The notes beneath the pieces are model-generated. The model was not told the origin of the DNA and did no database searches. It saw only the letters and a program-made list of their open reading frames with translations. Shown in pieces: positions 10,999-31,537 of a DNA stretch of 32,000 nucleotides. Source of the DNA: Desulfobulbus propionicus DSM 2032 (GTDB lineage: Bacteria > Desulfobacterota > Desulfobulbia > Desulfobulbales > Desulfobulbaceae); contig NC_014972.1 of the NCBI RefSeq assembly GCF_000186885.1, positions 3,270,001-3,302,000 on the forward strand, given 5' to 3'. Within the stretch, counting starts at the first letter, position 1. Each line of letters begins with the position of its first letter. Both the position numbers and the translations under genes were made by a program.

Positions 10999-12297
10999 AT
11001 GGAATGGAGAGATGAGTGGAAATATCTACTGTTGATTATCGGTGTTTTTCTCGCCTGTTTTTACCTGCCGGTGGGGATGGAGCGGTTCGACAACGCCATG
11101 CTCGAAGCCTTGCACCTCGTCAAGTGGTATGCGCGTGAGCATGTGCTGCTGTGCCTGGTACCGGCGTTTTTCATAGCCGGTGCAATTGGCGTGTTCGTCA
11201 GCCAGACCTCGGTCATGAAATACCTCGGACCAACTGCCAACAAGATGGTGGCGTATGGAGTGGCCGCTGTTTCCGGCACCATACTGGCCGTGTGCTCCTG
11301 CACCATCCTTCCCCTATTCAGCGGCATCTACAGGATGGGGGCCGGCCTTGGGCCAGCGTGCGCTTTTCTCTATTCCGGTCCGGCGATCAATGTGCTGGCC
11401 ATCATTCTCACCGCCCGCATCCTTGGCACCGAAATCGGCATCGCCCGGGGGGTGGGAGCCGTTCTGTTCAGCGTGATCATCGGGGCCTTGATGGCCTTTC
11501 TTTTTCGCGGGGAAGAGCAGGAAAAAGCAGCCGTTCACATGGCCTTGCCCGAAGAGGAGGTCAAACGATCTCTGTGGCAGAACGCGCTCTATTTTGCCTC
11601 GATGGTCGGGGTTCTGGTGTTTGCCAACTGGGGCAAGCCGCAGGAGCCTGTTGGCGCCTGGGCAACCATCCATGCCATGAAATGGATCATCACCTCCGGA
11701 TTTGCCGCCGCCTTGGGGGTGATCCTCATTGCCTGGTTCAACATGAAGGCATGGAAAGTCGGCCTGATTGCCATTCCCGTGGTGGCACTGGCACTACTCT
11801 TCCCTGAGCAACCTGTCGTGGCCTTTGCCGCCGGACTGGTCGGGCTTTCCATGTTCACCAGCACGGACAAGGATGAATTGGGCGACTGGTTCTCTTCCTC
11901 ATGGGGCTTCGCCAAACAGATTTTGCCGCTGCTGCTGTTTGGCGTGTTGATTGCGGGCGCCTTGTTGGGCCGGGTTGGCCATGAAGGGTTGATACCCTCG
12001 GAATGGGTGGCCAAGGCCGTGGGCGGCAATTCCTTTCAGGCCAACTTTTTTGCTTCGTTTGCCGGAGCCTTCATGTATTTTGCGACCCTCACCGAAGTGC
12101 CCATCGTTCAGGGGCTGATCGGCAGCGGCATGGGCAAGGGACCAGCGCTGGCCCTACTCCTCGCGGGGCCCGCTCTGAGTTTGCCCAACATGCTGGTGAT
12201 CAACAGTGTCCTTGGGGTGAAAAAAACCGTCACCTTTGTTGCCTTGGTGATCGTGATGGCCACCTTGAGCGGCATGTTGTTCGGTTCGTTTTTTTAA
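10999..12297 (+). CDS. COG0701-type permease with vicinal-cysteine CSC motif (ArsP-like putative organoarsenical/arsenic permease)
   Basis: 432 aa and polytopic, with two repeated halves separated by a charged loop (RGEEQEKAAVHMALPEEEVKR). TILAVCSCTILPLFSGI resembles the CxC motif of ArsP-type permeases. It lies directly downstream of arsR. The permease call is solid; the substrate is inferred. Confidence 0.8.
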   Translation: MEWRDEWKYLLLIIGVFLACFYLPVGMERFDNAMLEALHLVKWYAREHVLLCLVPAFFIAGAIGVFVSQTSVMKYLGPTANKMVAYGVAAVSGTILAVCSCTILPLFSGIYRMGAGLGPACAFLYSGPAINVLAIILTARILGTEIGIARGVGAVLFSVIIGALMAFLFRGEEQEKAAVHMALPEEEVKRSLWQNALYFASMVGVLVFANWGKPQEPVGAWATIHAMKWIITSGFAAALGVILIAWFNMKAWKVGLIAIPVVALALLFPEQPVVAFAAGLVGLSMFTSTDKDELGDWFSSSWGFAKQILPLLLFGVLIAGALLGRVGHEGLIPSEWVAKAVGGNSFQANFFASFAGAFMYFATLTEVPIVQGLIGSGMGKGPALALLLAGPALSLPNMLVINSVLGVKKTVTFVALVIVMATLSGMLFGSFF

Positions 12298-12479: not shown

Positions 12480-12506
12480 GAACAAGCCGGTTGTTCTATT
12501 ATTTGC
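12480..12506 (+). terminator. Weak terminator-like hairpin between the convergent permease and acr3
   Basis: GAACAA (12480..12485) / loop GCCGG / TTGTTC (12491..12496), followed by TATTATTTGC on the plus strand. The stem is short, and the hairpin overlaps the acr3 stop region. Confidence 0.3.
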
Positions 12507-13584
12507 TGCGGACATGGCAGACCCCGGTCAGCGTGCGTTGTGCGTGAGGGAAATACTTGTTTCTGAGCCGAAGGGCGACGTTCACCAAGGCGATGAGGAC
12601 CGGAACTTCGACCAGGGGGCCGATGACTGCGGCAAAAGCCTCGCCGGAATTAATGCCGAACACGGCGATGGCCACGGCAATGGCCAGCTCGAAATTGTTG
12701 GAGGCGGCGGTGAAACTCAGGGTCACGGTCTGCTCGTAAGTGGCGCCGACCTTCATAGACAGGAAGAAGGAGACGAAGAACATCACCAAAAAGTAAATGG
12801 TCAGGGGCACGGCGATGCGCAGCACATCAGACGGCAACTGGACGATGTATTCGCCCTTGAGCGAGAACATCACCAGGATGGTGAACAGCAGGAACATGAG
12901 GGTCAGGGGACTGATCCGGGGAATGAACACCTCCTCGTACCACGCCCTGCCCTTCAGCTTGATGCCGAGCAAACGGCTGAGCATGCCGGCAATGAAGGGA
13001 ATGCCCAGATAGATAAACACCGACTGACCGATCTCAGCGATGGAGACATCGACCACCGCCCCTGCTAAACCAAACCAGCCGGGGATGACGGTAATGAAGA
13101 TCCAGGCGTAAAGGGAAAAGAACAAAACCTGAAAAATCGAATTGAAGGCCACCAGCCCGGCGCAGTACTCGGTGTCGCCGTCGGCCAGATCGTTCCAGAC
13201 AATCACCATGGCGATACAGCGGGCCAGACCGATAAGGATCAGGCCGACCATGTAATGCTGTTGGCCGGAAAGCAGGGCGATAGCCAGGAGGAACATCAGC
13301 ACCGGCCCGATCACCCAGTTCTGCACCAAGGAGAGCAGCAGTACCCGGCCATTGCGAAAGACCTGGCCCAACTGCTCGTATTTGACCTTGGCGAGCGGCG
13401 GATACATCATCATGATCAGGCCGATGGCGATGGGAATGTTGGTGGTGCCCACCTGAAAGGCGTTGATCACCTGCTGCACGCCGGGAGCGGTGTAGCCCAG
13501 CATGACACCGGCGAACATGGCGAGAAAGATCCACAAGGTGAGGAAGCGATCCAAAAAACCGAGCTGTTTGGCCTGTTGCGACAT
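12499..13584 (-). CDS. acr3: ACR3 family arsenite efflux transporter
   Basis: Lies within ORF 12499..13680. Start moved to ATG 13584 ([24 protein letters not shown]..., AAGGA RBS upstream). Family strings include [12 protein letters not shown] and [24 protein letters not shown] (conserved Cys). Confidence 0.93.
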
Positions 13585-13680: not shown

Positions 13681-13830
13681 TCCCGTGCAACGTGTTCAAG
13701 TCATTGGCCAAAGGCACGGTCAGCTCGGACGTTCAGCCGGCCATCAAATGGTGAGGTGAAAGGTTGGCGAAGAAAACTGCCGGACAGGAGGGAGCATCCA
13801 TGGAGGGGAAAAAACGGGCGTTGGTTGATT

Positions 13831-13875
13831 GATCCTCCAGGCCCCCATGGCTTTGGCTCAGGGGGTCTGGAGATC
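13831..13875 (-). other. Long GC-rich stem-loop downstream of the relay operon (terminator-like or RNA-stabilising)
   Basis: Arms GATCCTCCAGGCCCCC (13831..13846) and GGGGGTCTGGAGATC (13861..13875) form about 15 pairs with one bulge and one G-U, around a 14-nt loop. On the minus strand a T6 run follows only after about 13 nt, so this is not a textbook intrinsic terminator. Confidence 0.4.
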
Positions 13876-13938
13876 ATCCAGGGTGATGCGGCGTCCGGAA
13901 AGGCGAGCCGCCCCTGCGATCGGCGCGATCGTAAGCGG

Positions 13939-14367
13939 TCACCACCCCTTGCAGCCGATAATGTTTTTGATGACCTCTTCAGTGCGTTTTTCCACCAGCA
14001 GCATCTTCTGCGCCTTGGCCTCCTTGATCTTGGCATTCAACGCCTGGATGTCGATCGGTTTTTCCAGAAAATCCATCGCCCCGAGCTTCATTGCCTCGAT
14101 TCCCTTTTCCACGGTCGCGTGGCCGGTGAGCAGGATAATCTGCAGATCGGGATTCTTGGCCCTGAGCCGGGTCAGCGCCTCCAGCCCGTCCATCTCCGGC
14201 ATCATCAGATCAAGGATGACGGCGTCGTAACTCTCTTCGCCCGCCTTGTCCAAGGCCTCCAGCGGCGAGGTGGTGGTGCTCACGTTCATGCCCCGATCGC
14301 GCATCCGCTCCGCCAGCACATCCATGAAATCCTGTTCATCGTCAATCAGCAACACTCGCTCGTTCAT
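13939..14367 (-). CDS. Single-domain response regulator (REC) with short C-terminal helical tail
   Basis: MNERVLLIDDEQDF...YDAVILDLMMPEMDGLE...LLTGHAT...MDFLEKP carries the full set of receiver signatures. ATG 14367 is preceded by AAGGAGG; the track start at 14370 is a GTG one codon upstream. Confidence 0.9.
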   Translation of the reverse strand: MNERVLLIDDEQDFMDVLAERMRDRGMNVSTTTSPLEALDKAGEESYDAVILDLMMPEMDGLEALTRLRAKNPDLQIILLTGHATVEKGIEAMKLGAMDFLEKPIDIQALNAKIKEAKAQKMLLVEKRTEEVIKNIIGCKGW

Positions 14368-14391
14368 CACAACCTCCTTCCAGCAGAATGA

Positions 14392-15048
14392 TCAATGGGA
14401 CGTGACGTCCAGCGGCAATCGCAGCACAATCTCTCCCGCCGCGGTCCGCAGGTCGACCTTGAGCCAGTCCATCAGCGCCTTTTCCTGCGCTCCGGGAAAG
14501 GACTCGGTTGCCACCAGAGGCAGGCCGCTGGGGTTCACCAGGCGGATCGCCACCGCTCCTTCCTCCACCGACACTGTCAGCAGCACCGATTCCCGCCGGG
14601 GCAGGGTCTCGATCACCTGCCGCAGCATCAGATAGACCAACGATTCCAGATAGATCAAGCAGGTGCGCACCGTGGTCTCGGCCGGGGTGACCGTCAACTC
14701 CAACTCCTTCATCGCCGCATGTCGCCCCGCCAATTCGACCATCAGGACCAGGGTCTCGGCCACGTTGCCCTGGAGAATCGGCGCGTCGGTGGTATGGGCG
14801 AAACGGTTGAGACTCTTCAACACCGCATCGCCGCGCTTGACCTGCTTGAGAATACGGCCGGTGGCCACGGCCAACCGATCAGGCGGAATCTCGATCCCCT
14901 TGGCCGCGCGCAGGGCCAGATCATCCAGCAGGCCGGCACTTTCGTTGACAATCGCCAGCACATTTTTCAGATCATGGGACACGGCGGCGGAAATCTTGCC
15001 AAACACCTGCAAACAGGCCGCGTCCAACGTTTCGTTGAGCGGTTCCAT
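14392..15048 (-). CDS. Sensor-less histidine-kinase-like protein with H-box but degenerate ATP-binding domain (candidate ChpT/Spo0B-type phosphotransferase)
   Basis: 218 aa with no TM segment. The H-box region ISAAVSHDLKNVLAIVNESAGLLDDL is paralogous to AAGIAHEINNPLAIINEKAGLIQDL of the neighbouring kinase. The C-terminal half (LVYLMLRQVIETLP...VAIRLVNPSGLPLV...) lacks a recognisable N-box Asn and DxGxG/GxGxGL boxes. The ATG directly abuts the upstream TGA, with a GGAGGAG RBS. Confidence 0.75.
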   Translation of the reverse strand: MEPLNETLDAACLQVFGKISAAVSHDLKNVLAIVNESAGLLDDLALRAAKGIEIPPDRLAVATGRILKQVKRGDAVLKSLNRFAHTTDAPILQGNVAETLVLMVELAGRHAAMKELELTVTPAETTVRTCLIYLESLVYLMLRQVIETLPRRESVLLTVSVEEGAVAIRLVNPSGLPLVATESFPGAQEKALMDWLKVDLRTAAGEIVLRLPLDVTSH

Positions 15049-15417
15049 TCACTCCTCCCCGGCGTCAAAGGCGGCATGAATCTTGGCCACCAGTTCCTGG
15101 ATATTGACCGGCTTGATCAGATAGTTATCCGCTCCGGCCTCCGAGGCCCCGGCCTCGAAATCCTCCTCCGAGCCGTGGCCGGTCAAAAAAATAAACCGCA
15201 TCGCCGGCGACAGTTTCTGCAATTCCGCCTTGAGCTGCAGGCCGTTCATCTTCGGCATCTTCATATCTAGCACCGCCAGATCGTAGGGACGCTCGGCCGC
15301 CAGCCGCAGCGCGTCCTCGCCGCACAGCGCCCAGTCGGCCTCGATGTCGCGCAACGACAGCCGTTCCGCCAGGGTCACCACCAATTCTTCCTCGTCGTCT
15401 ACCAACAGTACCTTCAT
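15049..15417 (-). CDS. Single-domain response regulator (REC)
   Basis: 122 aa. MKVLLVDDEEEL...YDLAVLDMKMPKMNGL...FLTGHGS...DNYLIKP. Confidence 0.92.
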   Translation of the reverse strand: MKVLLVDDEEELVVTLAERLSLRDIEADWALCGEDALRLAAERPYDLAVLDMKMPKMNGLQLKAELQKLSPAMRFIFLTGHGSEEDFEAGASEAGADNYLIKPVNIQELVAKIHAAFDAGEE

Positions 15418-15420
15418 CGC

Positions 15421-17190
15421 TTACCCCTTGTGCTCCGCCATGGTGAGCGGCAGCGTGATGATGAAACAGGTGCCCTTGCCCTGTTCACTGGTCACCCGGA
15501 TGGTTCCTCCCAGTTCGCTGACCAAGCCGTAGGTGATCGACAATCCCAGGCCGGTGCCGCCCCGACCGCCCTTGGTGGTGAAGAACGGCTCGAAAATTTT
15601 GGCCAGGTCTTCCGGCGGAATGCCGCAGCCGTCGTCGCTGATCGACAATTCCACCGCGCCGCTCCCCGCCTTGCGGACGGCGATTCCCAGGTTACCGCCA
15701 TCCTCCACCGCAGCAAAGGCATTTTTGATGATATTGAGCAGCACCTGCTGCAACTTCCCCTTGTCGCTGACAATATCCTCGATCCCGTCGTCAATGTCGA
15801 TCTTGATGGTGATCGAACGATACTCCGGCTCCTTGCCGAGAAAGCTGAGCACCTCGGTGATGATCTTGTGGAGATTGATCCGGGTGACGGTCGCCTCCGA
15901 CTGGCGGGCAAAGCTGAGCAGGCGGCGGGTGATCACCGAGCACCGCTCCACCGAGGAGACGATCGAGGCAATCAGCCCCAGCAGTTTGGCATCCTGTTTG
16001 TATTGCTCCTTGATCATGAACAGATCCTGGATCAGCCCGGCCTTCTCGTTGATGATCGCCAGCGGATTGTTGATCTCGTGGGCGATCCCCGCCGCCAGCC
16101 GGCCGATGCTGGCCATCTTCTCCGAATACTCGATCTCGTGAAGCATCATCACCCGTTTCTGGTCGGCGGTGTGGATGGCGTTGACCAGATAGGTGACCAC
16201 GCACAGCAGGACCAGGAGGATGATGCCCACGGTAAAGGAGAGGAAGATCAGGATCTTCATCCGCGTTTGCCGCCACTGGGCCATCAGCTCCGCCTTGGGG
16301 CTAACCAGCATGAGGATGAACGGCGAATTCTCCACATAGGCGTAACTGACCACCAGGGTGCCGTCGGCCACCGTCTCGGGCAACCGTGTGTCGGCGGCAC
16401 CCGGCACCGGCATGCCCTCGAGCTGATACCCCTCGGTATGATCGGAGAACTCGGGGACCGCCAGCGGCACCTTGCCGAGCACCTCGCCGAAATAGCGGGA
16501 TGGCGTCTGCAATACCCCCTCATGGTTGATGAGGAAGGCGTCACCGACCTCGCCGGTCTGTTCATGGGAGAGAATTTCCGTGAGCCGTTCGATGCTCACC
16601 GAGGTCCGGAGCACATAAAACGATCCGCCCGGCATCGACCGTTTCACCGCGATCACAATGTGGGGCAGATTACGCAGCCCCATGAACACGTCGCTGATGA
16701 AGATACCCCTGTTCTGGATCTCCTTGAACCACGGCTGGGACGAATAGTCGGCGTTCTCCAGGTGGAAGGGCCCTGAATAGGCACGCTGGATGCCGGCGGC
16801 ATCAATCACCCCCAGATCGGCAAACAGGCCCAAACCGCGGTTGAGGTTCTCGAGCAGGACCGTCAGCCGCCCCGGCTGGAGCAGCTGCTCAAAGGTATTG
16901 TCATGGATGATGAATTCCAGGGCGAACCGCTTCTTGGACAGGAGAAAGGATTCGGTCCGCCTGGTCTTGGCCACGAACCGGCTGGCCCGGGCCAGGGCCT
17001 CGGATTCAAAGGTGGCCTTGGTCACCTTGTACTCGTAGGCGGTCAGCATGACCAGCGGCAGAAACACGATCACCACCGAAATCAGCGCCGCCTCTTTCCA
17101 CAGGCGGCGGTAGTTGAACAGCTGCTTGTACATCCCCGAGGCATCGCCGTCGTGCCAGAATTCCGGGATGAACTTGTCAATCAACCACAT
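15421..17190 (-). CDS. Membrane sensor histidine kinase (2 TM, Cache-like periplasmic domain, HisKA, HATPase_c)
   Basis: 589 aa. TM helices around AALISVVIVFLPLVML and ILIFLSFTVGIILLVLLCVV. H-box AAGIAHEINNPLA, N-box LLNIIKNAFAAV, G-boxes SDDGCGIP and [22 protein letters not shown] upstream. Confidence 0.92.
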   Translation of the reverse strand: MWLIDKFIPEFWHDGDASGMYKQLFNYRRLWKEAALISVVIVFLPLVMLTAYEYKVTKATFESEALARASRFVAKTRRTESFLLSKKRFALEFIIHDNTFEQLLQPGRLTVLLENLNRGLGLFADLGVIDAAGIQRAYSGPFHLENADYSSQPWFKEIQNRGIFISDVFMGLRNLPHIVIAVKRSMPGGSFYVLRTSVSIERLTEILSHEQTGEVGDAFLINHEGVLQTPSRYFGEVLGKVPLAVPEFSDHTEGYQLEGMPVPGAADTRLPETVADGTLVVSYAYVENSPFILMLVSPKAELMAQWRQTRMKILIFLSFTVGIILLVLLCVVTYLVNAIHTADQKRVMMLHEIEYSEKMASIGRLAAGIAHEINNPLAIINEKAGLIQDLFMIKEQYKQDAKLLGLIASIVSSVERCSVITRRLLSFARQSEATVTRINLHKIITEVLSFLGKEPEYRSITIKIDIDDGIEDIVSDKGKLQQVLLNIIKNAFAAVEDGGNLGIAVRKAGSGAVELSISDDGCGIPPEDLAKIFEPFFTTKGGRGGTGLGLSITYGLVSELGGTIRVTSEQGKGTCFIITLPLTMAEHKG

Positions 17191-17221
17191 GGCCGCCCTC
17201 CTTTCGCCCGCGCGCCGACCG

Positions 17222-18442
17222 TCAGGCTCTCTTGTGTGCCCGCACTTTGTCGTAGGCCCGTTTCAGGGTGGCGCTCAGCTCGTCGATGTCCACCGGCTTC
17301 TGCAGATAGGCAAAGGCGCCCAGCCGCATGCAAGTGGCCTTGTCCTCCTCCGAGCCATGGCCGGTCAAAATCACCACCTCCACGTTGGGACGGGTCTCCT
17401 TGGTCTTGCGCAGGACCTCGAATCCGTCGATGCCCGGCATCTTCAGGTCCAGAATCATCACCTCCGGGTCATCGGTGGCCATCAGATCCAGGGCCGACTC
17501 GCCGTCATAGACCACCGCCGAGTCGATATCCCGCATCGACAACCGCTCCGACAAGGTCTGAACAAACTCGCGCTCGTCGTCGACCAGGAGCAGCCGCGGC
17601 GTTTCGAAGTCGTACTTGCGGTAGATATCGGTCTTGTGAAATCCCTTGCCCAGCCGGGTTTCGATCGAGGTCACGCCGTCGACCGAGCCGGCGATGGTTT
17701 TCAGCTCCTCCTCGAGACGGCTGAGCAGCAACACGTTCTGATGGATGGTCAGGGTTACCGCGCCGTCACGGGCAGCCACGCTGACAAAATGGCCCTGCCG
17801 GGCCAAGGCCACTTCCACCTGAGCCGCCAGCACAAAATCACGCTCCGCCCTCTTGGATGCCTTGGTGGGCTGGATCACCTCGCTGCGCAGATTCTCCACC
17901 ACCAGTTTGACCGCCTCTTCCAGCTTGATCTTGTCCACCGGGATGACCAAGTCGTACAACGAGGCACTCCACGGATCGGGCTGCCCGAACAGGGTATCGG
18001 TCCACGCCGCCTTTTCCTTGTCCTGCTTGTGGATCAGCGCCACCGCCTCCTTCTCGCTCACCTGCGTTTCTCGACCGGCCTGGACCAGGCGGTAATTCAT
18101 GTCGGCAATCAGGCAGACCCGGAGCACATGGGTGATCTCGTCGGGGATCAGATGACCGGTCAGTCCGTGGATCAGCGTGTTGTCCGCCTCCAACAAGGTC
18201 TCGGCCATGGCCAGTTTCATCCAGGCCAGCGCCCGTTCCTTTTCGTGGGTGATATTGTTGAAGATCGACGGCTTGTTCGCCAGCACATTCTCGATCTTCT
18301 TCCGGCTGATGGCCGACATGTCGGCCGCCTTGGCAACAATCTCCTCGTCGGTGATGACACTGTAGCGCACCTGTTCCCTGAGCAGGGAAACCAGTTGCTC
18401 GCCCTGGCAGTAACTGCCGCACATTAAGGTAATAACGGACAT
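17222..18442 (-). CDS. Cytidylate-kinase-like (degenerate P-loop) / BON-like / C-terminal REC fusion protein
   Basis: Lies within ORF 17222..18493. Start set to ATG 18442 (MSVITLMCGSYCQGEQL...) with a perfect AGGAGG 6 nt upstream. The N-terminal about 200 aa resemble the cytidylate-kinase-like family, but the P-loop position reads CGSYCQGE. The middle segment VSVAARDGAVTLTIHQNVLLLSRLEEELKTIAGSVDGVTSIETRL looks BON-like. The C-terminal receiver reads LLLVDDEREF...MILDLKMPGIDGF...ILTGHGS...YLQKP. Confidence 0.8.
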   Translation of the reverse strand: MSVITLMCGSYCQGEQLVSLLREQVRYSVITDEEIVAKAADMSAISRKKIENVLANKPSIFNNITHEKERALAWMKLAMAETLLEADNTLIHGLTGHLIPDEITHVLRVCLIADMNYRLVQAGRETQVSEKEAVALIHKQDKEKAAWTDTLFGQPDPWSASLYDLVIPVDKIKLEEAVKLVVENLRSEVIQPTKASKRAERDFVLAAQVEVALARQGHFVSVAARDGAVTLTIHQNVLLLSRLEEELKTIAGSVDGVTSIETRLGKGFHKTDIYRKYDFETPRLLLVDDEREFVQTLSERLSMRDIDSAVVYDGESALDLMATDDPEVMILDLKMPGIDGFEVLRKTKETRPNVEVVILTGHGSEEDKATCMRLGAFAYLQKPVDIDELSATLKRAYDKVRAHKRA

Positions 18443-18546
18443 GCGTTCCTCCTTGGAAATACGCTCGTGGTGGCTCCGGGTCGCAGGGGGCACGGCCGCC
18501 GGGCCGCAGCTCCATCCCTGGACGTCAATCGTTCGTTATCCATTAA

Positions 18547-18561
18547 GCAAGATACGGGCCA
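18547..18561 (-). promoter_or_regulatory. Candidate sigma-54 (-24/-12) promoter for the 18442..13939 operon
   Basis: The minus strand reads TGGCCC-GTATC-TTGCT. GG and GC have the canonical spacing of TGGCAC-N5-TTGCW. It lies about 105 nt upstream of ATG 18442 and directly downstream of the NtrC-type activator gene. Confidence 0.55.
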
Positions 18562-18626
18562 CTATTCAGTATCTCAGTTTTTCAACCAGTTACCCCCCGC
18601 ACTCCCTTTCCGTCGCCCCCGGAGGA

Positions 18627-18671
18627 CGAAACGCAACAGAACACCGCGAAACACCCGAAATGGTTCGAAAC
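18627..18671. repeat. Phased CGAAA(C/T) repeats upstream of the sigma-54 promoter (candidate activator binding array)
   Basis: CGAAAC occurs at 18627, 18647 and 18666, and CGAAAT at 18656, giving spacings of 20, 9 and 10 bp. The last copy lies in the 8-bp palindrome AAACGTTT (18668..18675). The array sits 66-115 bp upstream of the -24 box relative to minus-strand transcription. Confidence 0.4.
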
Positions 18672-18713
18672 GTTTTGGAACAAAGGGTCCGGCCGGCCGG
18701 CAAGGGCTGCTTC

Positions 18714-20108
18714 TCAGCTTTTTTCCCGGAATCGGTGCAACGCTATGCCGTATTTGTTGATCTTGTCGTAGAGGCTCTTGCGGGAGATGCCCATCAGCTG
18801 GTGGGCCAGGCTGACCTGACCGCCGACCTGCCGCAAAACCTGCTCCACATACAGTTGCTCCTGCTGGTCCATGTAGTCCTTCCACGGCAGGCAGGGGGTC
18901 TCGACATCAGGTACGGCAAGGGATTGCCCGCCCTGTTCCTGGTCCCGCCCCCCCAACACGCAGTATCGGCGCACAACATTGCGCAGTTCGCGAATATTGC
19001 CGGGCCAGTCCTGGGCCATCAGCTCGCGGATCAGCTCCGGCGAGCAGGGGCGGACCTCGCCGGGTTGGCCGTCACAGTACTCCTTCCAGAAATAATCGAC
19101 CAGCAGCGGGATGTCCTCCTTGCGTTCGCGCAGTGGCGGCAGGTGTACCGGCAGGACATTGAGGCGGAAATAGAGATCCTGGCGGAAGGCGCCCTTGTCG
19201 ATTTCGGCCCGCAAGTCGCGGTTGGTGGCGGCGATGATCCGCGCCTTGAGCGGAATGACCGTGTTGCTGCCCAGGCGGCAAAAGGTGCGATCCTCGAGCA
19301 CCCGCAGCAATTTGGATTGCAGTTGCGTCGGCATGGAACAGATCTCGTCGAGAAAGAGCGTGCCCTCGCCAGCATATTCGAATGTGCCCACCTTGCGCTG
19401 GATGGCCCCGGTGAAGGCTCCTTTCTCGTGGCCGAACAGCTCGGATTCGATCATCTCCGAGGGAATGGCCCCCATGTTGACCGCCACATAGGGCAGGGCA
19501 TGCCGTGGGCCGATGTCGTGAACGGCCCGGGCCACCAGTTCCTTGCCAGTGCCGGTTTCGCCGACGATCAACACCGGATCGTTCTCCTTGGCGACGGCCT
19601 CGATCAGGTTGTACAGACTGAGCATCGAAGGATGGCTGCCCACCAGCCCGTAAAAGCGGGACCGGCCCTGGCGGGTGGCGATCAGCTGCCGCTCCAGCCG
19701 GCGATTTTCCAGCACCAGCTGCCGCCGCTCGATAGCCCGGGCCAGGGTGGCGAGAATCATCTCCTCATCCACCGGTTTTTGCAAAAAGTTGTAGGCTCCC
19801 TTCTTGACCGCCTCCACCGCCATGCTGATATCGCCGTGCCCGGTGATCAGGATCACCGGTAGATCGCAATCCTTGGCCAGCATCCGCTCCAGGAGCACCA
19901 TGCCGTTCATCTCCGGCATGCGGATGTCGGCGAGCACCGCCGAATAGGTATGGCCGTCGACGCTTGCCAGGGCTTCCAGCGGATTGCCAAAGGTCCGCAC
20001 CGCATAGCCGTTGAGCACCAGAGTCTGTTTGATGGCCGCCAGCAGATAGAGGTCGTCATCGACAACCAGAATCTCCGGGACCGGAACTGTCTCCTGATCG
20101 GTATTCAT
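18714..20108 (-). CDS. NtrC-family sigma-54-dependent response regulator (REC, AAA+, Fis-type HTH)
   Basis: 464 aa. REC (ILVVDDDLYL...VLADIRMPEMNG), Walker A GETGTGKE, canonical ESELFGHEKGAFTGA, WPGNIRELRN, and C-terminal HTH LAHQLMGISRKSLYDKINKYGI. The ATGA overlap with the upstream kinase suggests translational coupling. Confidence 0.95.
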   Translation of the reverse strand: MNTDQETVPVPEILVVDDDLYLLAAIKQTLVLNGYAVRTFGNPLEALASVDGHTYSAVLADIRMPEMNGMVLLERMLAKDCDLPVILITGHGDISMAVEAVKKGAYNFLQKPVDEEMILATLARAIERRQLVLENRRLERQLIATRQGRSRFYGLVGSHPSMLSLYNLIEAVAKENDPVLIVGETGTGKELVARAVHDIGPRHALPYVAVNMGAIPSEMIESELFGHEKGAFTGAIQRKVGTFEYAGEGTLFLDEICSMPTQLQSKLLRVLEDRTFCRLGSNTVIPLKARIIAATNRDLRAEIDKGAFRQDLYFRLNVLPVHLPPLRERKEDIPLLVDYFWKEYCDGQPGEVRPCSPELIRELMAQDWPGNIRELRNVVRRYCVLGGRDQEQGGQSLAVPDVETPCLPWKDYMDQQEQLYVEQVLRQVGGQVSLAHQLMGISRKSLYDKINKYGIALHRFREKS

Positions 20109-21331
20109 CGCTCCTCCTGGCGCGGGCCTTCCGTTGTCGGCGCTGGCCGATACTGGGGAATATAGACGGAAAAGCAGGCGCCCTTGCCGGGAACGCTCTC
20201 CACCTCGATATGACCGGAAAAGCCGCGAACGATACGATCCACGATCGACAGCCCCAGCCCGGTGCCGGTGCCGACCTCGCGGGTGGTGAAGAAGGGATCG
20301 AAAATCTTTTTCTGCAGTTCCTCGGGGATGCCTTCACCGTTATCGGCCACGGTGACCAGCACATAGGGCTCCTTTTGCATGGTGGTCAGATTGAGGCAGT
20401 CGGTGATCCGGCTGGTGATGGTCAAGCGGGGAACCACCACCCGCCCCATGGCCTGGACCGCGTTTTGCACCAGGTTGAGAAACACCTGTTCGAGGCGGAC
20501 CTCGACCCCCAAAACCACGCAGGGGTGGTCGTCCAGGCGCAAATCGAGAAAAACCTCGCTCAGGCGCAGTTGGGCCTCGAGAAACTTGAGGATCTTGCGG
20601 ATGATCTGGTTCAGATCGAGCGGCGCCTGTTCTTCCTCGACCTTGCGACCAAAGCTGCGCATGGTGGCAATGATCGAGGAGGCCTTGTTGACCCGGTCGA
20701 TGATGATCTGCAGATTTTCCCGCAGCATGTCCTTGTGGTCGCCCGGTGCATCCAGGGCCTTGAGGCAGTTGCGGGCGAAAAGCAGGATGGCGTTGAGCGG
20801 CTGGGTCAGCTCGTGGCCGACACCGGCTGCCATCTCCCCCAGGCTGGCCAGCCGGCTGGAATGGATGAGCTGTTTCTGCCCCTCCTGCATCTGCGCCATC
20901 AGATCGTAGAACTCACTGCAGTCAGAGCAGATCAGCATATGCAGCACCAGACCGTTGGGGTTGACATGGGTCGAACCACGCATCTTCACAGGCAGACCGG
21001 TGCCCTTGGCGGTTTTGAGATGGGCTTCGAATTCCGTGAACTCTCCCTTGGCAAAAGCCTGGCGGATTGCTTCGGCCGTCTCCGGCTGCACCAGATCTTC
21101 CAAGGCCAGTTGTTGGTCGCTGTCCAGAAGAAAACCGGTTCGTTCGAGGAACTCACGATTGGTCTGGATAACCTGAAATTCCTGGTCCAGCAGAAGAAAC
21201 AACTCGGAGATCCCCGCCAAAATCCGCTCGGTGAACGAGCGGCTGGCTTCCATTTCCTCGTGTTTCCGCAACACCCGAACAACCAGGTCCTGCCGTTGTT
21301 TTTCCAGTATTTTTATTGCCTGATCATGCAT
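20105..21331 (-). CDS. Cytoplasmic PAS-domain histidine kinase (NtrB-like)
   Basis: 408 aa with no TM segment. PAS-like N-terminal half, H-box [16 protein letters not shown]-box [13 protein letters not shown]-boxes ADNGEGIP and [22 protein letters not shown] upstream. Confidence 0.92.
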
Positions 21332-21568: not shown

Positions 21569-23059
21569 ATGCTCCACTGTTGCATCTTCCTCTGCGGCGC
21601 GGCCCTGATGATCATCGAACTCACCGGCTCGCGCATCCTGGCCCCCTTCCTTGGCACCTCCCTGGTCGTCTGGACGAGCCTGATCGGAATCATCCTCGCC
21701 AGCCTCAGCTTCGGGGCCTGGTGGGGTGGGGTACTCGCCGACCGATCGCCACGCCCCAATCTCCTGGGGCGCATTGTTTTGATGGCCGCCTGGTCCACCG
21801 CCGCCATTGGCCTGTCCAAGAGCTGGATCCTCGAATTTCTTCAAGGCACGGGCAACCTGCACGCCGTGGCCATCACCGCCACCGTTGCCCTGTTCGCGCC
21901 AGCGGCGATCCTGCTCGGCATGGTGCCGCCCTTTGCGGTCCGCCTCTGCCTGCACGACACCGACCACACAGGACGCACGGCAGGGAGCCTTTATGCCCTC
22001 TCCACCATCGGCTCCATAGTCGGCACCTTTCTCGCCGGGTTTGTTCTCATCGCCTGGGTGGGCAGCACCGCGATTCTCTTCATCACAGCCGCCTTCCTCG
22101 TCCTGGCTTCATGGTTGGCCGAACCCTCGAACAAAGCCATCAAGGGCGTCTCCCTGTTCCTTTTTCTGCTGGCCATCGCCCTCTGCCGCCTCCAGGATCA
22201 ACGCCTTGAGCAACTGGGATTCCTCGACCGGGATACCCCCTACAACCGGGTCTTGGTCTACACCAGCAAGGAAGAAGGCACGGACCGACTGATGCGGGAG
22301 ATGGTCACCGGGCCTCAGGGGCGGCAATCGGCCATGTACCTGGACAATCCTACCGAACTGGCCCTGCCCTACACGCGTTTTTATCGGCTGATCGAGCATT
22401 ACCATCCCACGGCACGCCGCATGCTGGTGCTGGGCGGAGGGGGCTATTCCTTCCCCAAATACGCCTTGGCCCGGTACCCGGATCTGCGGATTGACGTGGT
22501 TGAACTCGATCCAGGTATTACCAACCTGGCGCGGACCCACTTCGGCCTGACCGACCATCCCCGTTTGACCATCATCGAGGAAGACGCCCGTACCTTTCTT
22601 AAAAAAGTCGACCACCCCTACGATGTGATCCTGTGCGATGTGTTCAACTCGCACTACTCCATCCCTTTTCACCTGGTGACCGTCGAGGCCATCGGCCTGA
22701 TGCATTCCGCTCTCAAGGCGGACGGCGTTGTCCTGGTGAACCTGCTAGCCTCCACCGAAGGGGTGTCGAGCCGATTTTACAAGGCGTTGCATGCCACCTT
22801 CCGCGCCGCTTTTCCCTCGGTCCAAGCCTATGCGGTGGTCGATCCCACCGACAAGCACTTGTGGCAGAACATGCTGCTCGTCGCCGGCAAGGGCGAGCTT
22901 TCCACCAACGAGCCCAAGGATCCCTCCCTGCGGCGGATGCTTACCCACGCTCTGCCCCCACCCGATAACCATCCCCCTCCCTTCACCGACGAGTATGCCC
23001 CGGTGGATCGCTACATTGGCGAGTTTGGTTTAGGATTGACCGCGCACAGCGATTCCTGA
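21569..23059 (+). CDS. Membrane-fused spermidine-synthase-like (SpeE-fold methyltransferase-like) protein
   Basis: 496 aa. About 6-7 N-terminal TM helices are followed by MLVLGGGGYSFPKYA...IDVVELDPGI...YDVILCDVF, matching the SpeE-type aminopropyltransferase fold. Confidence 0.85.
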   Translation: MLHCCIFLCGAALMIIELTGSRILAPFLGTSLVVWTSLIGIILASLSFGAWWGGVLADRSPRPNLLGRIVLMAAWSTAAIGLSKSWILEFLQGTGNLHAVAITATVALFAPAAILLGMVPPFAVRLCLHDTDHTGRTAGSLYALSTIGSIVGTFLAGFVLIAWVGSTAILFITAAFLVLASWLAEPSNKAIKGVSLFLFLLAIALCRLQDQRLEQLGFLDRDTPYNRVLVYTSKEEGTDRLMREMVTGPQGRQSAMYLDNPTELALPYTRFYRLIEHYHPTARRMLVLGGGGYSFPKYALARYPDLRIDVVELDPGITNLARTHFGLTDHPRLTIIEEDARTFLKKVDHPYDVILCDVFNSHYSIPFHLVTVEAIGLMHSALKADGVVLVNLLASTEGVSSRFYKALHATFRAAFPSVQAYAVVDPTDKHLWQNMLLVAGKGELSTNEPKDPSLRRMLTHALPPPDNHPPPFTDEYAPVDRYIGEFGLGLTAHSDS

Positions 23060-23256: not shown

Positions 23257-25806
23257 TCAATGCGGGGATGAGGTGGCGAGCAGATATTTTGAGGAGGGCC
23301 CCCGGCCCGACTTCTTCATCAGTCCCTTGTCGACCAAGTCGTGCAAATCGTATTGAGCCGTGCGAACGGAAACGGCATCCCCCACCACCTTCTGATACTC
23401 GCTGCGGCTGATGACGCCATTTTTGACAATCAGAGGCCAGGCCTTGCGTTGCCTGATATTCAACTCGGGAGGGACGCCCATGTCCTGCTGTTCTGCTTCA
23501 GCCTCGTTGGCTGGCGGGGCAGACAGGGCTTTTGCAGGGGGTGTGGGCGGCAGTGCGGACGGAAACGACTCGTTCTCCGGCGCGTCGTCACCTTCCAGCT
23601 CGACGCCTCGCTCGTCAAAGAGAATATGCTGAGCGAGCAGCAGATCGCTTTCGGCAAAAGCCAGCGAGCGGGTGATACAGTTGCGCAACTCACGGATATT
23701 TCCCGGCCAGTCATGACTGAGCAATCGTTCCAGGGCACCACGGCTGATCCCCACCGGGTCCAGCCCTGAGAGGGTCATGTGTTCATCGAGGAAATATTTG
23801 ACCAGTACCGGAATATCCTCCTTCCGCTCACGCAACGGCGGCGTATTGATGGTGATCACCGCCAGGCGGTAGTAGAGATCTTCCCGAAAATCACTGGTCA
23901 GAGAGAGCTGGAGCAGGTCAACATTAGTGGCGGCGATAATGCGGGCGTCAAAGGCGACATCCTGATCCGATCCCAGAGGCCGAATCCGGCGGACGGATAA
24001 GGCTCGCAGCAAGGCCTGCTGCACCTTGGGGGAGGCATTGCCGATCTCATCGAGATGCAGGGTACCGCCCGATGCAGCGACAAAAGCGCCCTTCCGCTCG
24101 TTTTGGGCATCAGAAAAGGCGCCCTTGACATGACCGAACAGGGCATCCATGAGCAGATTTTCATCCAAGGCTCCGCAGTTAATGGAAATGAACGGCCCTT
24201 TGGCCCGGTGACTGACCGAATGGATGGCTTCGGCGGTCAGCTCCTTCCCCGTCCCGGTTTCGCCAACGATCAATACGTCCGCCAGGACCCGCGACGCCTT
24301 GTGGATCTGCTGGCGGAGCGTTCCAACCGCCTGACTGCCGCCGACAATCCCGTAGAGCGGCATGGCCAGCAATCGCGCATCAAGCAACGGATTATCACGC
24401 ATCTCCTTCTCCAAATTGACTCGCTGACGCATGCGATCATCCTCGACAAGCCCTTCGCGCAACAACGAATCACTTCGCGCAATATGCAATTGCATAAGCA
24501 GGATATTGATGGACCGCTGAAACTGGTTGATCTCCGCAAACAGCGGTCCAAGGGCCAGCGGTGAAGGATCGTCTCCACCCGCCCTGACATCGACGGCCTC
24601 GGCGAGCAATTCGAGCTGTCGCGCGATACGGCGACTGACAAAATACATGGCCATGAAGACCAGAATGACGCCAAGTGCCACGCAAACGCTCAAGGTTCCG
24701 GCAATCCGGTAGGTGGAGGCCATGAACACAAAACTGGTGTCGATGCAACCGATACCGCCGACAATACGCCGTGTCCCCGCGCCCTCCTCAAAGACAATCG
24801 GCACATAGCTGAGATAGAGGGATCGATCACTCCCGGACGGCGCGATAAACGGACGCGTGACCAATATCTGTCCCGATTTTCCGGCCTGGACGTCGGACAC
24901 CATCGCCCAGTAGAGATCGTGGGCAAAGCCCGGACGAAAGGCGGTGCTGAATCCAGGACGCCCCACATCTCCCTGCAATCCCATGCGCAAGAGATCGACG
25001 GAAAGATCGGCCTGCTGTCGGTCGGGAGATTCGGATTGGAACAGCAGCCAGCCCGCGGCATCAAAGAAAAAACTTTTTTTATGCTCGCTTTCCTGGGGAA
25101 AGAGGAAGAGCGGCGACTGTTTGGAGGTATGCAGGGAGATGATATCGCGCAAGTGGGGCAGATCGATCGACAGTGTCAGTTGTCCTTTATAGGTCTTGCT
25201 GCCGTCATAGACCGGCGTGGTCAGACGGATGACATGCATGTTGAGCGCGCTCATTTTTCCCTCGACATGCACCGACGGGTAGACCACCTCCATGGGTTCC
25301 CCGATCTGAATGTACCCTGCCGGCTTGCCGGTCAACAGATCGCGACTGGAAAAAATACCGAATTTTGCCCCCATGGCCTGATCAATGGGCACGGGGATCA
25401 CGCTGCTTCCGGTGTTGACCAGGACAAAACGCTCCTCGGCGGTCTGACCATGGAAGGCTATTTCACGATAGCGGTTGCGCTCCTCGGCTGATTTGGCGGC
25501 CAGATGAGTGCTGATTGACTCCGGCGTGAGGGACAGACGGGTGAGATATTCCAATTCGTATCGGGCCGCCACCAGCAACTGGTTGATCTCGTGCGCCTGC
25601 GCTAGAGCCCGCACTTGAGCATTTCTCGAATAGGCTTGGTCGAGATAGGAGGAAACGATGTGATAGGTGACGATCACCGTGGCGGAGAGGATGATCACCA
25701 CCAGCAGAGTGCCCAAGAGCACCAGAAACTTGCCGACGCTCCAGGAATAGATCGACCCATCGACCCGGATCAACGGGTTCAGCAGGGGGGGATGCGAGTA
25801 GCGCAT
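23257..25806 (-). CDS. Membrane-anchored sigma-54 activator-like protein (TM, about 330-aa periplasmic sensor, TM, HAMP-like linker, AAA+, winged-helix C-terminus)
   Basis: The track start at 25833 is a GTG. I prefer ATG 25806 (MRYSHPPLL...), which has AAGGAGAA 8 nt upstream. TM1 is FLVLLGTLLVVIILSATVIV and TM2 is IAGTLSVCVALGVILVFMAMYFV. AAA+ motifs: VGETGTGKE, LFGHVKGAFSDA in place of GAFTGA, GGTLHLDEIG, WPGNIRELRN. The C-terminus ISRSEYQKVVGDAVSVRTAQYDLHDLVDKGLMKKSGRGPSSKYLL is a wHTH pattern, not a Fis-type HTH. Confidence 0.9.
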   Translation of the reverse strand: MRYSHPPLLNPLIRVDGSIYSWSVGKFLVLLGTLLVVIILSATVIVTYHIVSSYLDQAYSRNAQVRALAQAHEINQLLVAARYELEYLTRLSLTPESISTHLAAKSAEERNRYREIAFHGQTAEERFVLVNTGSSVIPVPIDQAMGAKFGIFSSRDLLTGKPAGYIQIGEPMEVVYPSVHVEGKMSALNMHVIRLTTPVYDGSKTYKGQLTLSIDLPHLRDIISLHTSKQSPLFLFPQESEHKKSFFFDAAGWLLFQSESPDRQQADLSVDLLRMGLQGDVGRPGFSTAFRPGFAHDLYWAMVSDVQAGKSGQILVTRPFIAPSGSDRSLYLSYVPIVFEEGAGTRRIVGGIGCIDTSFVFMASTYRIAGTLSVCVALGVILVFMAMYFVSRRIARQLELLAEAVDVRAGGDDPSPLALGPLFAEINQFQRSINILLMQLHIARSDSLLREGLVEDDRMRQRVNLEKEMRDNPLLDARLLAMPLYGIVGGSQAVGTLRQQIHKASRVLADVLIVGETGTGKELTAEAIHSVSHRAKGPFISINCGALDENLLMDALFGHVKGAFSDAQNERKGAFVAASGGTLHLDEIGNASPKVQQALLRALSVRRIRPLGSDQDVAFDARIIAATNVDLLQLSLTSDFREDLYYRLAVITINTPPLRERKEDIPVLVKYFLDEHMTLSGLDPVGISRGALERLLSHDWPGNIRELRNCITRSLAFAESDLLLAQHILFDERGVELEGDDAPENESFPSALPPTPPAKALSAPPANEAEAEQQDMGVPPELNIRQRKAWPLIVKNGVISRSEYQKVVGDAVSVRTAQYDLHDLVDKGLMKKSGRGPSSKYLLATSSPH

Positions 25807-25939
25807 TTGACGTTCTCCTTGCGTAACAATCACGCCGCATCACGAACGGCTTTTTTTTCGCTACCAGATAACGCGCAATAGCGCAATGGCAAAATCACAA
25901 CTCTTTGAAATTTTAAATATATTCATTTGCACAAAAAGT

Positions 25940-26458: not shown

Positions 26459-27514
26459 ATGGACTGGCTTTATATTCTCATGCCCATTGCCGGTGTTAAG
26501 ATTTTCTGGCCCGGCCTCATTATCCTCGGTATCGGCGTTGGTATCATTGGCGGTTTCTTTGGCATGGGCGGTGCCTGGATGGTGACCCCCGGCCTTAACA
26601 TTCTCGGTTTCCCCATGGCCTTTGCCATCGGCACCGACATCGCCCACATGGCCGGAAAATCACTCATCTCCACCATGCGGCACGGCAAGTTCGGCAACGT
26701 TGACTACAAACTCGGCATGATCATGCTGGTCGGCACGGTGGTCGGCTTCGAGTGCGGCGCCCAGATGGTTATGTGGCTGGAGCGCCTTGGTTCGGTGGAA
26801 AAGGTTGTCCGCTGGATCTATGTCGGCCTGCTGCTGTTCATTGCCTGGACCGTCTTCCACGATGTGGCCAAACGCAAGGCCAAAGAGAAGGCTGCCGCTG
26901 AAAAAGGCGAGACCCTGGAAGCCGGCGCCACCGGTGTCGAGTGGCACAAGACCCTGCACAAGATCAAGATCCCGCCGATGGTCCATCTCAAGGCCGCTGG
27001 CATCTACTGCTCCGCCTGGCTGCCGATCTTCGTCAGTTTCCTTACCGGTTGGCTGGCCGGTATCCTCGGTATCGGCGGCGGTCTGATCCGTATGCCCGCC
27101 CTGATCTACATGATCGGTTGCCCGACCCATGTTGCCGTCGGCACCGACCTGTTTGAAGTGGCCATTTCCGGTCTGTACGGTGCAGCCACCTATACCTTCA
27201 AGGGCCGGACCGAACTGGTCGCCGCCATGGTCATGCTCGTCGGCGCCGCCATGGGTGCCCAGGTTGGCGCGGTCGCCACCAAGTACATCAAGGGCTACGG
27301 CATCCGTATCATCTTCGGCTACGCGGTTCTCGGCTGCATGGCCTCCATCCTGATGAAGCTCGTCCAACCCTGGCTGCCGCAATACAAGGATCTGCTCAAC
27401 AACATGGCCACCATCACCGTTCTTGGCCTGATCACCGCCATGTCGGCCTACATCTTCATCAAGATGGTCCAGGGCGTGAAGAAGGAATTGGCCATGAAAC
27501 AACAGAAAATTTAA
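26459..27514 (+). CDS. TauE/SafE (sulfite-exporter) family anion permease, long-loop variant
   Basis: 351 aa with 4+4 TM architecture. Both halves carry GGFFGMGGAWMVTPGL and GILGIGGGLIRMPALI repeats. The central charged loop reads KRKAKEKAAAEKGETLEAGATGVEWHKTLHK. AAGGAG RBS upstream. Confidence 0.88.
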   Translation: MDWLYILMPIAGVKIFWPGLIILGIGVGIIGGFFGMGGAWMVTPGLNILGFPMAFAIGTDIAHMAGKSLISTMRHGKFGNVDYKLGMIMLVGTVVGFECGAQMVMWLERLGSVEKVVRWIYVGLLLFIAWTVFHDVAKRKAKEKAAAEKGETLEAGATGVEWHKTLHKIKIPPMVHLKAAGIYCSAWLPIFVSFLTGWLAGILGIGGGLIRMPALIYMIGCPTHVAVGTDLFEVAISGLYGAATYTFKGRTELVAAMVMLVGAAMGAQVGAVATKYIKGYGIRIIFGYAVLGCMASILMKLVQPWLPQYKDLLNNMATITVLGLITAMSAYIFIKMVQGVKKELAMKQQKI

Positions 27515-31150: not shown

Positions 31151-31537
31151 ATGATGGATACGTTGCGGGTTTTATTTGTGGATGACGAGGATGATTTTCG
31201 GGAAACCATTGTCAAAAGGCTGAATGCAAGAAAAATCCAGGCCATGGGTGCCGAAAGCGGTTTCAAGGCCCTGGAAATTCTTAAAGACCACGATTTTGAC
31301 GTCATGGTGCTGGACGTCAAGATGCCGGGCATGGACGGGATTGAAACCCTGCGGCACGTGAAGAAGATGAAACCGGAGATCGAGGTCATCATGCTCACCG
31401 GTCATGCCTCGGTGGAGTTTGGCCTCAAGGGCATGCAGCTCGGTGCCTTTGACTATGTGATGAAACCGGCGCCGCTCAACGAACTGCTCGACACCATCGG
31501 TCAGGCCTACAACAAGAAACGTGGCGTGATTCACTGA
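31151..31537 (+). CDS. Single-domain response regulator (REC)
   Basis: 128 aa. LRVLFVDDEDDF...FDVMVLDVKMPGMDGI...MLTGHAS...FDYVMKP. Confidence 0.93.
   Translation: MMDTLRVLFVDDEDDFRETIVKRLNARKIQAMGAESGFKALEILKDHDFDVMVLDVKMPGMDGIETLRHVKKMKPEIEVIMLTGHASVEFGLKGMQLGAFDYVMKPAPLNELLDTIGQAYNKKRGVIH

Follow-up and report, generated by a model that had tools for sequence, protein, structure and literature searches.

A 32,000-nucleotide (nt) stretch of Desulfobulbus propionicus DSM 2032 (contig NC_014972.1, positions 3,270,001 to 3,302,000; hereafter the window) contains seven adjacent two-component signaling genes. We propose that the last five of these (18442..13939, minus strand) form one sigma-54-dependent operon encoding a closed, probably branched His-Asp-His-Asp phosphorelay, and we give this proposal an even chance of being correct. 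It draws on direct observations of which genes are present, of their motifs and folds, of synteny, and of how the promoter is conserved. At its center stands a 218-residue protein that derives from a histidine kinase and is kept, together with its partners, in hundreds of species.

The seven genes run in one direction on the minus strand, from 21331 down to 13939, and, apart from a BON label taken up below, their open reading frame (ORF) positions and domains agree with the initial annotation of the window. The upstream pair consists of a soluble PAS kinase (20105..21331; 408 residues; PAS_9, HisKA, and HATPase_c; no transmembrane segment) and an NtrC-type sigma-54 activator (18714..20108; 464 residues; REC-Sigma54_activat-HTH_8). 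The activator ATG overlaps the kinase TGA, which is the ATGA coupling annotated earlier. A gap of 271 nt follows; it had been described as roughly 270 bp with a promoter-like element, and it does contain such an element, TGGCCCGTATCTTGCT. The operon then encodes, in order, a 406-residue regulator with a Cytidylate_kin2-like domain, a small middle domain, and a C-terminal REC (17222..18442); a 589-residue membrane kinase, dCache_1-HisKA-HATPase_c (15421..17190; hereafter the Cache kinase); a 122-residue single-domain REC, the proposed relay intermediate (15049..15417); the 218-residue relay protein, a proposed histidine phosphotransferase (14392..15048); and a 142-residue single-domain REC with a C-terminal tail, a proposed terminal acceptor (13939..14367). 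Successive genes are separated by 31, 3, 0, and 21–24 nt, in keeping with the tight packing (0–31 nt) first reported. As had also been stated, no DNA-binding output domain was detected in the five-gene operon. None of the seven proteins falls in a curated equivalog family of NCBIfam.

The 218-residue protein finds nothing above threshold in Pfam, where HisKA is a sub-threshold match at E = 0.04. In an alignment of 25 diverse homologues, reaching down to 28% identity, His25 (in SHDLKN), Asp/Glu26, and Asn29 are invariant in every sequence, and Glu36, Ala38–Leu40, Asp43, and an NRFAH motif are invariant or nearly so. Mean pairwise identity is 57% in the DHp domain versus 27% in the remaining part, which resembles a catalytic and ATP-binding (CA) domain; the C-terminal half is poorly conserved. 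The N and G2 boxes of the ATP-binding domain are missing from all 25 sequences, and so are the G1 and F boxes, save for one chance DxGxG. By the standard of a canonical HisKA kinase, the protein has the H-box and lacks the N, G1, F, and G2 boxes, all four of which are intact in both the Cache kinase and the PAS kinase. The initial annotation had described a kinase-like protein with its H-box kept and its ATP-binding boxes lost, and the invariant histidine and the boxes absent throughout the family confirm that description.

The AlphaFold2 (AF2) model of this protein has a predicted local distance difference test (pLDDT) score of 93.7. It shows a helical hairpin, with helices at residues 8–49 and 56–88 (pLDDT >90), and an alpha/beta domain in which a 15-residue loop replaces the kinase ATP lid. 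Judged from the missing boxes and from this model, the CA-like domain is predicted to be incapable of ATP binding. A Foldseek search with the model returned complete kinase cores (HK853, DivL, SrrB, KinB, and CusS) at about 1e-10, and a profile search of PDB sequences with the family matched ZraS, ThkA, KinB, and LvrB. Neither Spo0B nor ChpT appeared in the PDB profile search up to E = 10, nor were there Pfam matches to their families. Because the folds are those of kinase cores and the profile matches include ZraS, ThkA, and KinB and neither Spo0B nor ChpT, the protein is, to judge from its sequence, a degenerate member of the ZraS/AtoS-like HisKA lineage, unrelated by sequence to the known phosphotransferases.

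The relay protein also resembles the kinase encoded with it. Its first DHp helix is nearly identical to that of the Cache kinase two genes upstream (HEINNPLAIINEKAGL vs. HDLKNVLAIVNESAGL), and this likeness holds in about 70 loci, with HE(I)xN.LAIINExAGL in common. An exhaustive profile search found 1,062 relay-protein clusters at E ≤ 1e-30, counted at 50% identity, nearly all of them stand-alone proteins of 215–230 residues. Rare fusions exist, one REC-relay and one relay-REC (P0371, 343 residues; P0432, 358 residues), which mirror the flanking genes and could be either natural or artefacts of assembly or frameshift. Two of the loci fetched for comparison (L009 13996–14925 and L011 17670–18539) encode proteins of about 290–310 residues with a HisKA match only and no HATPase_c, downstream of a PAS-domain activator; by their domain content, the neighborhood may contain degenerate kinases of a second type.

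The three receivers of the operon, like that of the NtrC-type activator, all have the active-site residues DD, D, T, and K when aligned to CheY. Alpha1 of a receiver is the main docking and specificity helix in two-component systems. Across loci, the three REC classes (before the relay protein, after it, and within the 406-residue protein) have in common the alpha1 signature E.(E/D)F..TL(A/S)ERL..R, unlike the receivers of neighboring NtrC-type activators, which read DQQLGLSFAKIL in this helix. Thus, the five proteins look like a closed phosphotransfer set that is insulated from the neighboring pair. We also considered the NtrC-type activator as the DNA-binding end point of the relay; this is unlikely, since its REC alpha1 and the DHp of its kinase differ from the module signatures. 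A FATGUY-type motif occurs in none of the three operon receivers, all of which are of the NtrC-like LTGHG type, so this check does not discriminate.

At the two ends of the proposed relay stand the Cache kinase, with transmembrane helices at residues 34–52 and 313–331 and a periplasmic dCache domain, and the 406-residue protein, which is the probable output protein of the module. The N-terminal domain of the latter matches Pfam Cytidylate_kin2 (PF13189) at 9.6e-20 and the fold of 3hdt (AF2 model, pLDDT 83). Its Walker A position reads CGSYCQGE in place of GxxGxGK[ST] and is degenerate in all 53 orthologues, so the cytidylate-kinase-like domain is a pseudo-kinase. The middle domain had been labeled BON. 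Its predicted alpha-beta-beta-alpha-beta order is compatible with BON and not specific to it, and no Pfam BON match was obtained at E ≤ 10, either for residues ~195–275 or for the whole protein; we therefore drop the label. The 406-residue protein is the best-conserved part of the module, with ~60% identity to Desulfobacterales orthologues.

Relay-protein loci were confirmed 465 times in GTDB species representatives, and we fetched 80 of them for comparison, mapping the domains of the window onto them by tblastn. The gene just upstream of the relay gene encodes a REC in 74/77 loci, Cache kinase, REC, and relay protein are contiguous in 65/68, and the cytidylate-kinase-like regulator is found upstream in 49/56. 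A REC follows the relay gene in 48/75 loci. The idea, put forward in the initial annotation, that gene order spells out the relay therefore survives for the contiguous kinase-REC-relay genes but does not hold everywhere for the terminal REC, which in the Desulfopila/Desulforhopalus lineage sits beside the first gene instead. Two layouts are predominant. In Type A, an optional TetR gene and a SulP gene precede the five genes in window order. In Type B, found in Desulfopila, Desulforhopalus, and Desulfocapsaceae, a sigma-54 promoter is followed by the regulator, the tailed REC, a DASS transporter, a PAS-domain sigma-54 activator, a small ORF, the Cache kinase, a REC, the relay protein, and a kinase/NtrC pair. 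Thus, the invariant unit is kinase-REC-relay, and the presumed terminal receivers travel together. Their joint travel would fit a relay having two end acceptors.

The proposed promoter of the operon is the -24/-12 element TGGCCCGTATCTTGCT (18546..18561, minus strand), which matches the sigma-54 consensus at 11/12 positions. Its GG (18560–18559) and GC (18548–18547) doublets are spaced exactly 10 nt within the pattern TGGCAC-N5-TTGCW. With sigma-54, transcription is expected to begin some 12 nt past the GC doublet, which puts the predicted start near 18536. The element (TGGCCC-N5-TTGCT) might instead be a chance match, with transcription of the operon coming from a sigma-70 promoter or running through from the upstream pair. 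Indeed, the loose pattern TGGC-N7-TTGC occurs close to its chance rate (4 in the window vs. 2.3 expected) and is weak evidence alone, and the activator gene is not followed by any convincing terminator. However, among loci without a SulP gene upstream, -24/-12 elements lie 83–234 nt upstream of the orthologous first gene in 25/29 (23/27 distinct contigs), when GG-N10-GC with at least 10/12 consensus matches is required. The background of such elements is 0.046 sites per kb per strand, or ~0.03 expected per region. This conservation of position extends across families and includes the closest relatives, L086 and L087, and the flanking blocks are conserved as well, so that a chance origin is effectively excluded. 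Within the window, TGGCCCGTATCTTGCT is the sole TGGC-N7-TTGC site that is intergenic and faces a gene.

Seven aligned Desulfobulbus upstream regions contain four conserved blocks within otherwise diverged sequence: GTTYC repeats, YAA-N4-YTGWAA, the -24/-12 element, and the ribosome-binding site (RBS). In the window, the first block is a putative upstream activating sequence of five GTTYC direct repeats with a spacing of ~10–11 bp (18627..18682, minus strand), 65–120 nt upstream of the promoter element; GTTYC-N5-GTTYC has its single occurrence in the window here. The second, TAACTGGTTGAAAA (18579..18592, minus strand), lies between the repeats and the promoter, and we take it, by its likeness to the IHF consensus, to be a putative IHF-like site. 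The classical sigma-54 layout is the same: upstream sites, a bend site, then -24/-12. Together with the conservation across loci, the repeats and the IHF-like site uphold the sigma-54 promoter of the initial annotation. In 31 SulP-linked loci, no sigma-54 element was found upstream of the SulP genes, so sigma-54 control is not universal for the module.

The repeats are not confined to the relay operon. In relatives, the GTTYC motif occurs at the sigma-54 promoter of a REC-CBS-DASS operon as well as at that of the relay operon. In Desulfobulbus relatives, these REC-CBS-DASS operons are equipped with a separate -24/-12 element preceded by inverted GTTYC/GRAAC motifs (L008 10430–10590; L011 12112–12260; L086 12182–12330; L087 11340–11495), which implies that the two operons may belong to one regulon. 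Loci of the Desulfopila/Desulforhopalus type have, in place of GTTYC, four to six tandem GATACA/GTTACA repeats with ~11-bp spacing, ~60–150 nt upstream of the sigma-54 element (L013, L019, L023, L025, L049, L052, L064, L074, and L083); these look like a lineage-specific form of the same direct-repeat enhancer.

Which activator acts at this promoter is less clear-cut. The initial annotation saw a two-tier cascade, with the PAS kinase/NtrC pair controlling the operon. The pair does adjoin a conserved sigma-54 promoter, and the NtrC-type protein looks functional by its motifs (the Asp of LADIRMP, Walker A GETGTGK, and GAFTGA). It lies directly upstream of the operon in all four genomes of its clade, and activator genes commonly adjoin their target promoters. 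Outside the window, however, orthologues of the pair adjoin the operon in L006, L086, and L087 only; that in L006 is 87% identical in the AAA+ domain of the activator, and those in L086 and L087 were assigned by gene order. All other neighboring activators are 44–50% identical to the NtrC-type protein of the window. In L008, L009, L011, and probably L012, a PAS-AAA-HTH activator is encoded after the operon instead of the pair. It is orthologous to the Type B activator (52–82%) and merely ~40% identical to the NtrC-type protein, with a different HTH recognition helix, yet both groups of Desulfobulbus share the GTTYC repeats upstream of the operon. Thus, the neighboring NtrC-type protein may not be the activator.

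The pair could then be a mere neighbor that controls other genes, while another activator fires the promoter and a pan-Desulfobulbus factor binds GTTYC. The retention of the repeats beside two such different activators speaks for this alternative, as does the fact that direct repeats are unusual for Fis-type HTH activators. We consider it a distinct possibility but lean against it. Among the best 120 matches (down to 54% identity), no orthologue of the PAS-domain activator came from the genome of the window, which is suggestive of its absence there; this lineage thus seems to have replaced the PAS activator. Either the NtrC-type protein took over the GTTYC sites, or the repeats bind another factor. 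The two-tier cascade is therefore best restricted to the clade of the window, L006, L086, and L087, for which it is plausible from gene order and motifs.

The genomic company of the module elsewhere is dominated by anion transporters. A SulP or DASS gene is present in 47/56 assessable loci, and in 25 loci the operon's first gene comes right after SulP. The upstream genes of the window, its PAS kinase/NtrC pair, and the operon all recur in L086 and L087, where (PilZ)-REC-CBS-DASS-CitMHS comes next. In the window, that position, just past the operon, is occupied by an arsenite efflux gene of the ACR3 family (12499–13584, minus strand; TIGR00832, 456 bits) and, divergent from it, by an ArsP_1-family permease gene (10999–12297, plus strand). 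The transporter operon has thus been lost or displaced in this genome, and the comparison suggests that the ACR3/ArsP_1 genes are a replacement or an insertion. An SBF-family transporter downstream was considered as a target of the module and rejected, since it is this ACR3 arsenite exporter and has its own sigma-70-like promoter. A PilZ-domain gene lies between the relay operon and REC-CBS-DASS in L009 (11268–11726), L011 (11298–11729), and L086 (11391–11822); the window has none. In relatives, the REC-CBS-DASS operons have a paralogue of the last REC as their first gene. In L087, this receiver (11597–12037) has the same alpha1 signature as the last REC of the window (13939–14367) and the same kind of C-terminal tail ending in K(S/G)W, a resemblance that suggests a shared partner for the two tails.

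From these observations we infer each phosphotransfer step, the ligand, the output, and the acting activator, as follows. The dCache domain of the Cache kinase would detect a ligand in the periplasm; judging from the genomic company of the module elsewhere, this may be sulfate or an anion related to it. The kinase would then autophosphorylate and phosphorylate the 122-residue receiver. From there the phosphoryl group would move to His25 of the 218-residue protein, which would come from the same kinase lineage as its partner, having kept the receiver-docking helix and lost ATP binding. The 218-residue protein would hand the phosphoryl group to the 142-residue receiver, to the receiver of the 406-residue protein, or to both. 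The output is presumably not direct DNA binding and, in most sulfate reducers, may be tied to anion transport through SulP or DASS genes. Sigma-54 and an enhancer-binding protein, and probably IHF as well, would be required for transcription of the operon. The obvious candidate activator in this lineage is the neighboring PAS kinase/NtrC pair.

Several observations weigh against this phosphorelay. The case for it is built from sequence, fold, and synteny, and phosphotransfer is inferred for every member of the family. The terminal REC adjoins the relay protein in just the 48/75 loci given above, and the two fusions are possibly artefacts. The receivers are without the FATGUY motif of the alphaproteobacterial intermediates, although that motif is not universal. 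No transporter of the SulP or DASS kind adjoins the module here, so that the ligand is a guess. On the side of transcription, the GTTYC repeats are kept in Desulfobulbus with a PAS-domain activator of different HTH and no NtrC pair. Finally, the relay protein retains the acidic residue at H+1 and the Asn at H+4, which fits a phosphatase-only role equally well.

This last point leads to the main rival, in which the 218-residue protein is a dedicated, ATP-independent phosphatase or phosphate sink for at least one of the receivers; the Cache kinase would phosphorylate all three directly, and the 218-residue protein would reset them. Asp/Glu at H+1 and Asn at H+4 are marks of HisKA phosphatase activity, and both are invariant in the family. 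A docking helix like that of the kinase should bind the same receivers, and PhyT-type proteins were long regarded as phosphatases. However, several kinases can act as phosphatases without strictly requiring the histidine, which in this family is the same in 25/25 sequences. A shuttle is also the better fit for three receivers with one alpha1 signature, and for fusions that involve the upstream REC in one case and the downstream REC in the other. The two roles could also coexist, as has been proposed for PhyT. On balance, we regard a phosphatase or sink without relay function as doubtful, with enough in its favor to be taken seriously. A DivL-type pseudokinase scaffold, which would bind a phosphorylated receiver and tune the Cache kinase allosterically while carrying no phosphate, seems to us very unlikely. 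DivL is among the best structural matches, and the gene is tightly packed with the kinase and receiver genes, but the match is to a generic kinase-core fold, with HK853, KinB, and CusS scoring equally; moreover, DivL has replaced its histidine, whereas the histidine is invariant here. The phosphorelay could, in addition, be given a more specific purpose. The module may be the long-sought sulfate (or oxyanion) sensor of sulfate reducers, with the pseudo-kinase receiver protein and the tailed single-domain receiver as terminal acceptors that bind STAS/CBS partners of SulP/DASS transporters and gate uptake directly, after translation. We think this extension unlikely; if true, the two-component relay would act on transporters instead of on transcription.

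Details of the locus refine the gene models. The gene for the 406-residue protein starts at ATG 18442 rather than in the longer GTG ORF that reaches 18493, because ATG 18442 is preceded by an AAGGAGG RBS and the resulting MSVIT... N-terminus is kept in the 53 orthologues. For the last REC, we read an RBS and start codon for ATG 14367 (142 residues), which is more likely, from these signals, than the GTG 14370 (143 residues) of the initial annotation. A stem-loop at 13829..13876 (minus strand), ~60 nt 3′ of the last stop codon, is tentatively a possible operon terminator; its centroid energy is −27.9 kcal/mol, its z-score merely −1.76, and its T-run begins 16 nt past the stem. An Rfam scan of the whole 32-kb window gave no match to an RNA family; the 5′ leader thus has neither a riboswitch nor a known small RNA.

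Other genes in the window are of related kinds. A second dCache histidine kinase (29492–31144, plus strand) shares 32% identity with the Cache kinase from end to end, sensor included, as well as the HE(I/V)NNPLA..EKAG helix, and is followed by a single-domain REC (31151–31537, plus strand). It lies near a TauE/SafE-family anion permease gene (26459–27514, plus strand), and the trio is syntenic in L086. An 858-residue sigma-54 activator (23257–25833, minus strand) has no Pfam domain in its first ~490 residues and no recognizable HTH_8 at its C terminus, and is conserved in L087. Divergent from the PAS kinase gene lies a gene for a fused MFS/spermidine-synthase-like protein (21569–23059, plus strand; NF037959, 281 bits), an arrangement that is kept in L087.

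The module offers a defined set of five proteins, conserved in hundreds of species, with which to approach the question of how sulfate reducers sense sulfate and switch between uptake systems. It adds a kinase-derived relay family, independently evolved and numbering ~1,000 clusters, that has no Pfam profile, and thereby lengthens the list of histidine kinases that have decayed into phosphotransfer or phosphatase modules. It also includes a response regulator with an uncharacterized pseudo-kinase output domain. For annotation, the 218-residue proteins are now called “sensor histidine kinase” or “hypothetical,” and both names are misleading.

It is useful to compare the module with systems already described. 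NtrB/NtrC-type cascades likewise place a kinase/activator pair beside a -24/-12 promoter that comes with upstream sites and a bend site of the IHF kind. Here, by contrast, the upstream sites are direct repeats, where inverted repeats are usual, and the target is itself a signaling operon. In the RedCDEF “four-component” system of Myxococcus xanthus, a single operon reportedly combines receiver-only proteins with a membrane kinase and with RedE, a second kinase-like protein that has no sensor and exchanges phosphate with receivers; RedE is said to keep its ATP-binding domain, unlike the 218-residue protein. Spo0B and ChpT are dimeric four-helix-bundle phosphotransferases with an ATP-free CA-like domain, a plan that we propose for the 218-residue protein as well, and ChpT branches to CtrA and CpdR much as we propose branching to two acceptors. 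A route from a kinase by way of a single-domain REC and a degenerate-kinase phosphotransferase to another REC thus has precedents in Spo0F/Spo0B and ChpT, as it does in SdrG/PhyT. The module has, however, no sequence relationship to Spo0F/Spo0B/Spo0A or CckA-ChpT-CtrA/CpdR in PDB profile or Pfam searches, its first receiver is free-standing, unlike that of CckA, and its terminal acceptors have no DNA-binding domain.

The same gene sets have been partly described in the context of sulfate transport. A 2025 study of Desulfobacteraceae (PMC11887813) reported gene clusters of DASS- and SulP-type sulfate transporters that include Cache-domain kinases, and suggested that these kinases sense sulfate, as we tentatively propose here. 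The same gene sets occur among the loci compared here: TetR-SulP ahead of the five genes (L001), or Usp, receivers, DASS, a Cache kinase, and CBS (L005). That study modeled the system as PhoR/PhoB-like with “WalR-type” regulators, a putative regulation of sulfate uptake presented without biochemistry, and it makes no mention of the relay protein, the cytidylate-kinase-like regulator, or sigma-54 promoters; the copy in the window, moreover, has no adjacent transporter. A survey that compared sulfate transporters (PMC5840216) is silent on signaling genes next to them. In the literature we found no experimental work on these signaling proteins in Desulfobulbus or Desulfobacterium. The view of the initial annotation that the module is not characterized thus stands as far as experiments go, but not for the clusters as such, in which the relay protein went unnoticed.

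A close parallel in topology is Pak-SdrG-PhyT-PhyR of the alphaproteobacterial general stress response (PMC5898713). There, too, a kinase acts through a single-domain receiver on a kinase-derived degenerate protein, which passes the phosphoryl group by way of a conserved histidine to a response regulator. Both a relay role and a phosphatase role have been argued for PhyT, and the 218-residue protein could similarly double as a phosphatase or sequestering partner. The differences are nevertheless clear. PhyT is membrane-anchored and of the HWE/HisKA_2 lineage, whereas the 218-residue protein is soluble and of the ZraS/AtoS-like HisKA lineage; the Desulfobulbus genes lie in one operon, their receivers lack FATGUY, and the output is not an anti-anti-sigma factor. 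Overall, the comparison places the proposed relay as a phosphorelay of a known kind that evolved independently, is widespread in sulfate reducers, and has been partly noticed in the literature.

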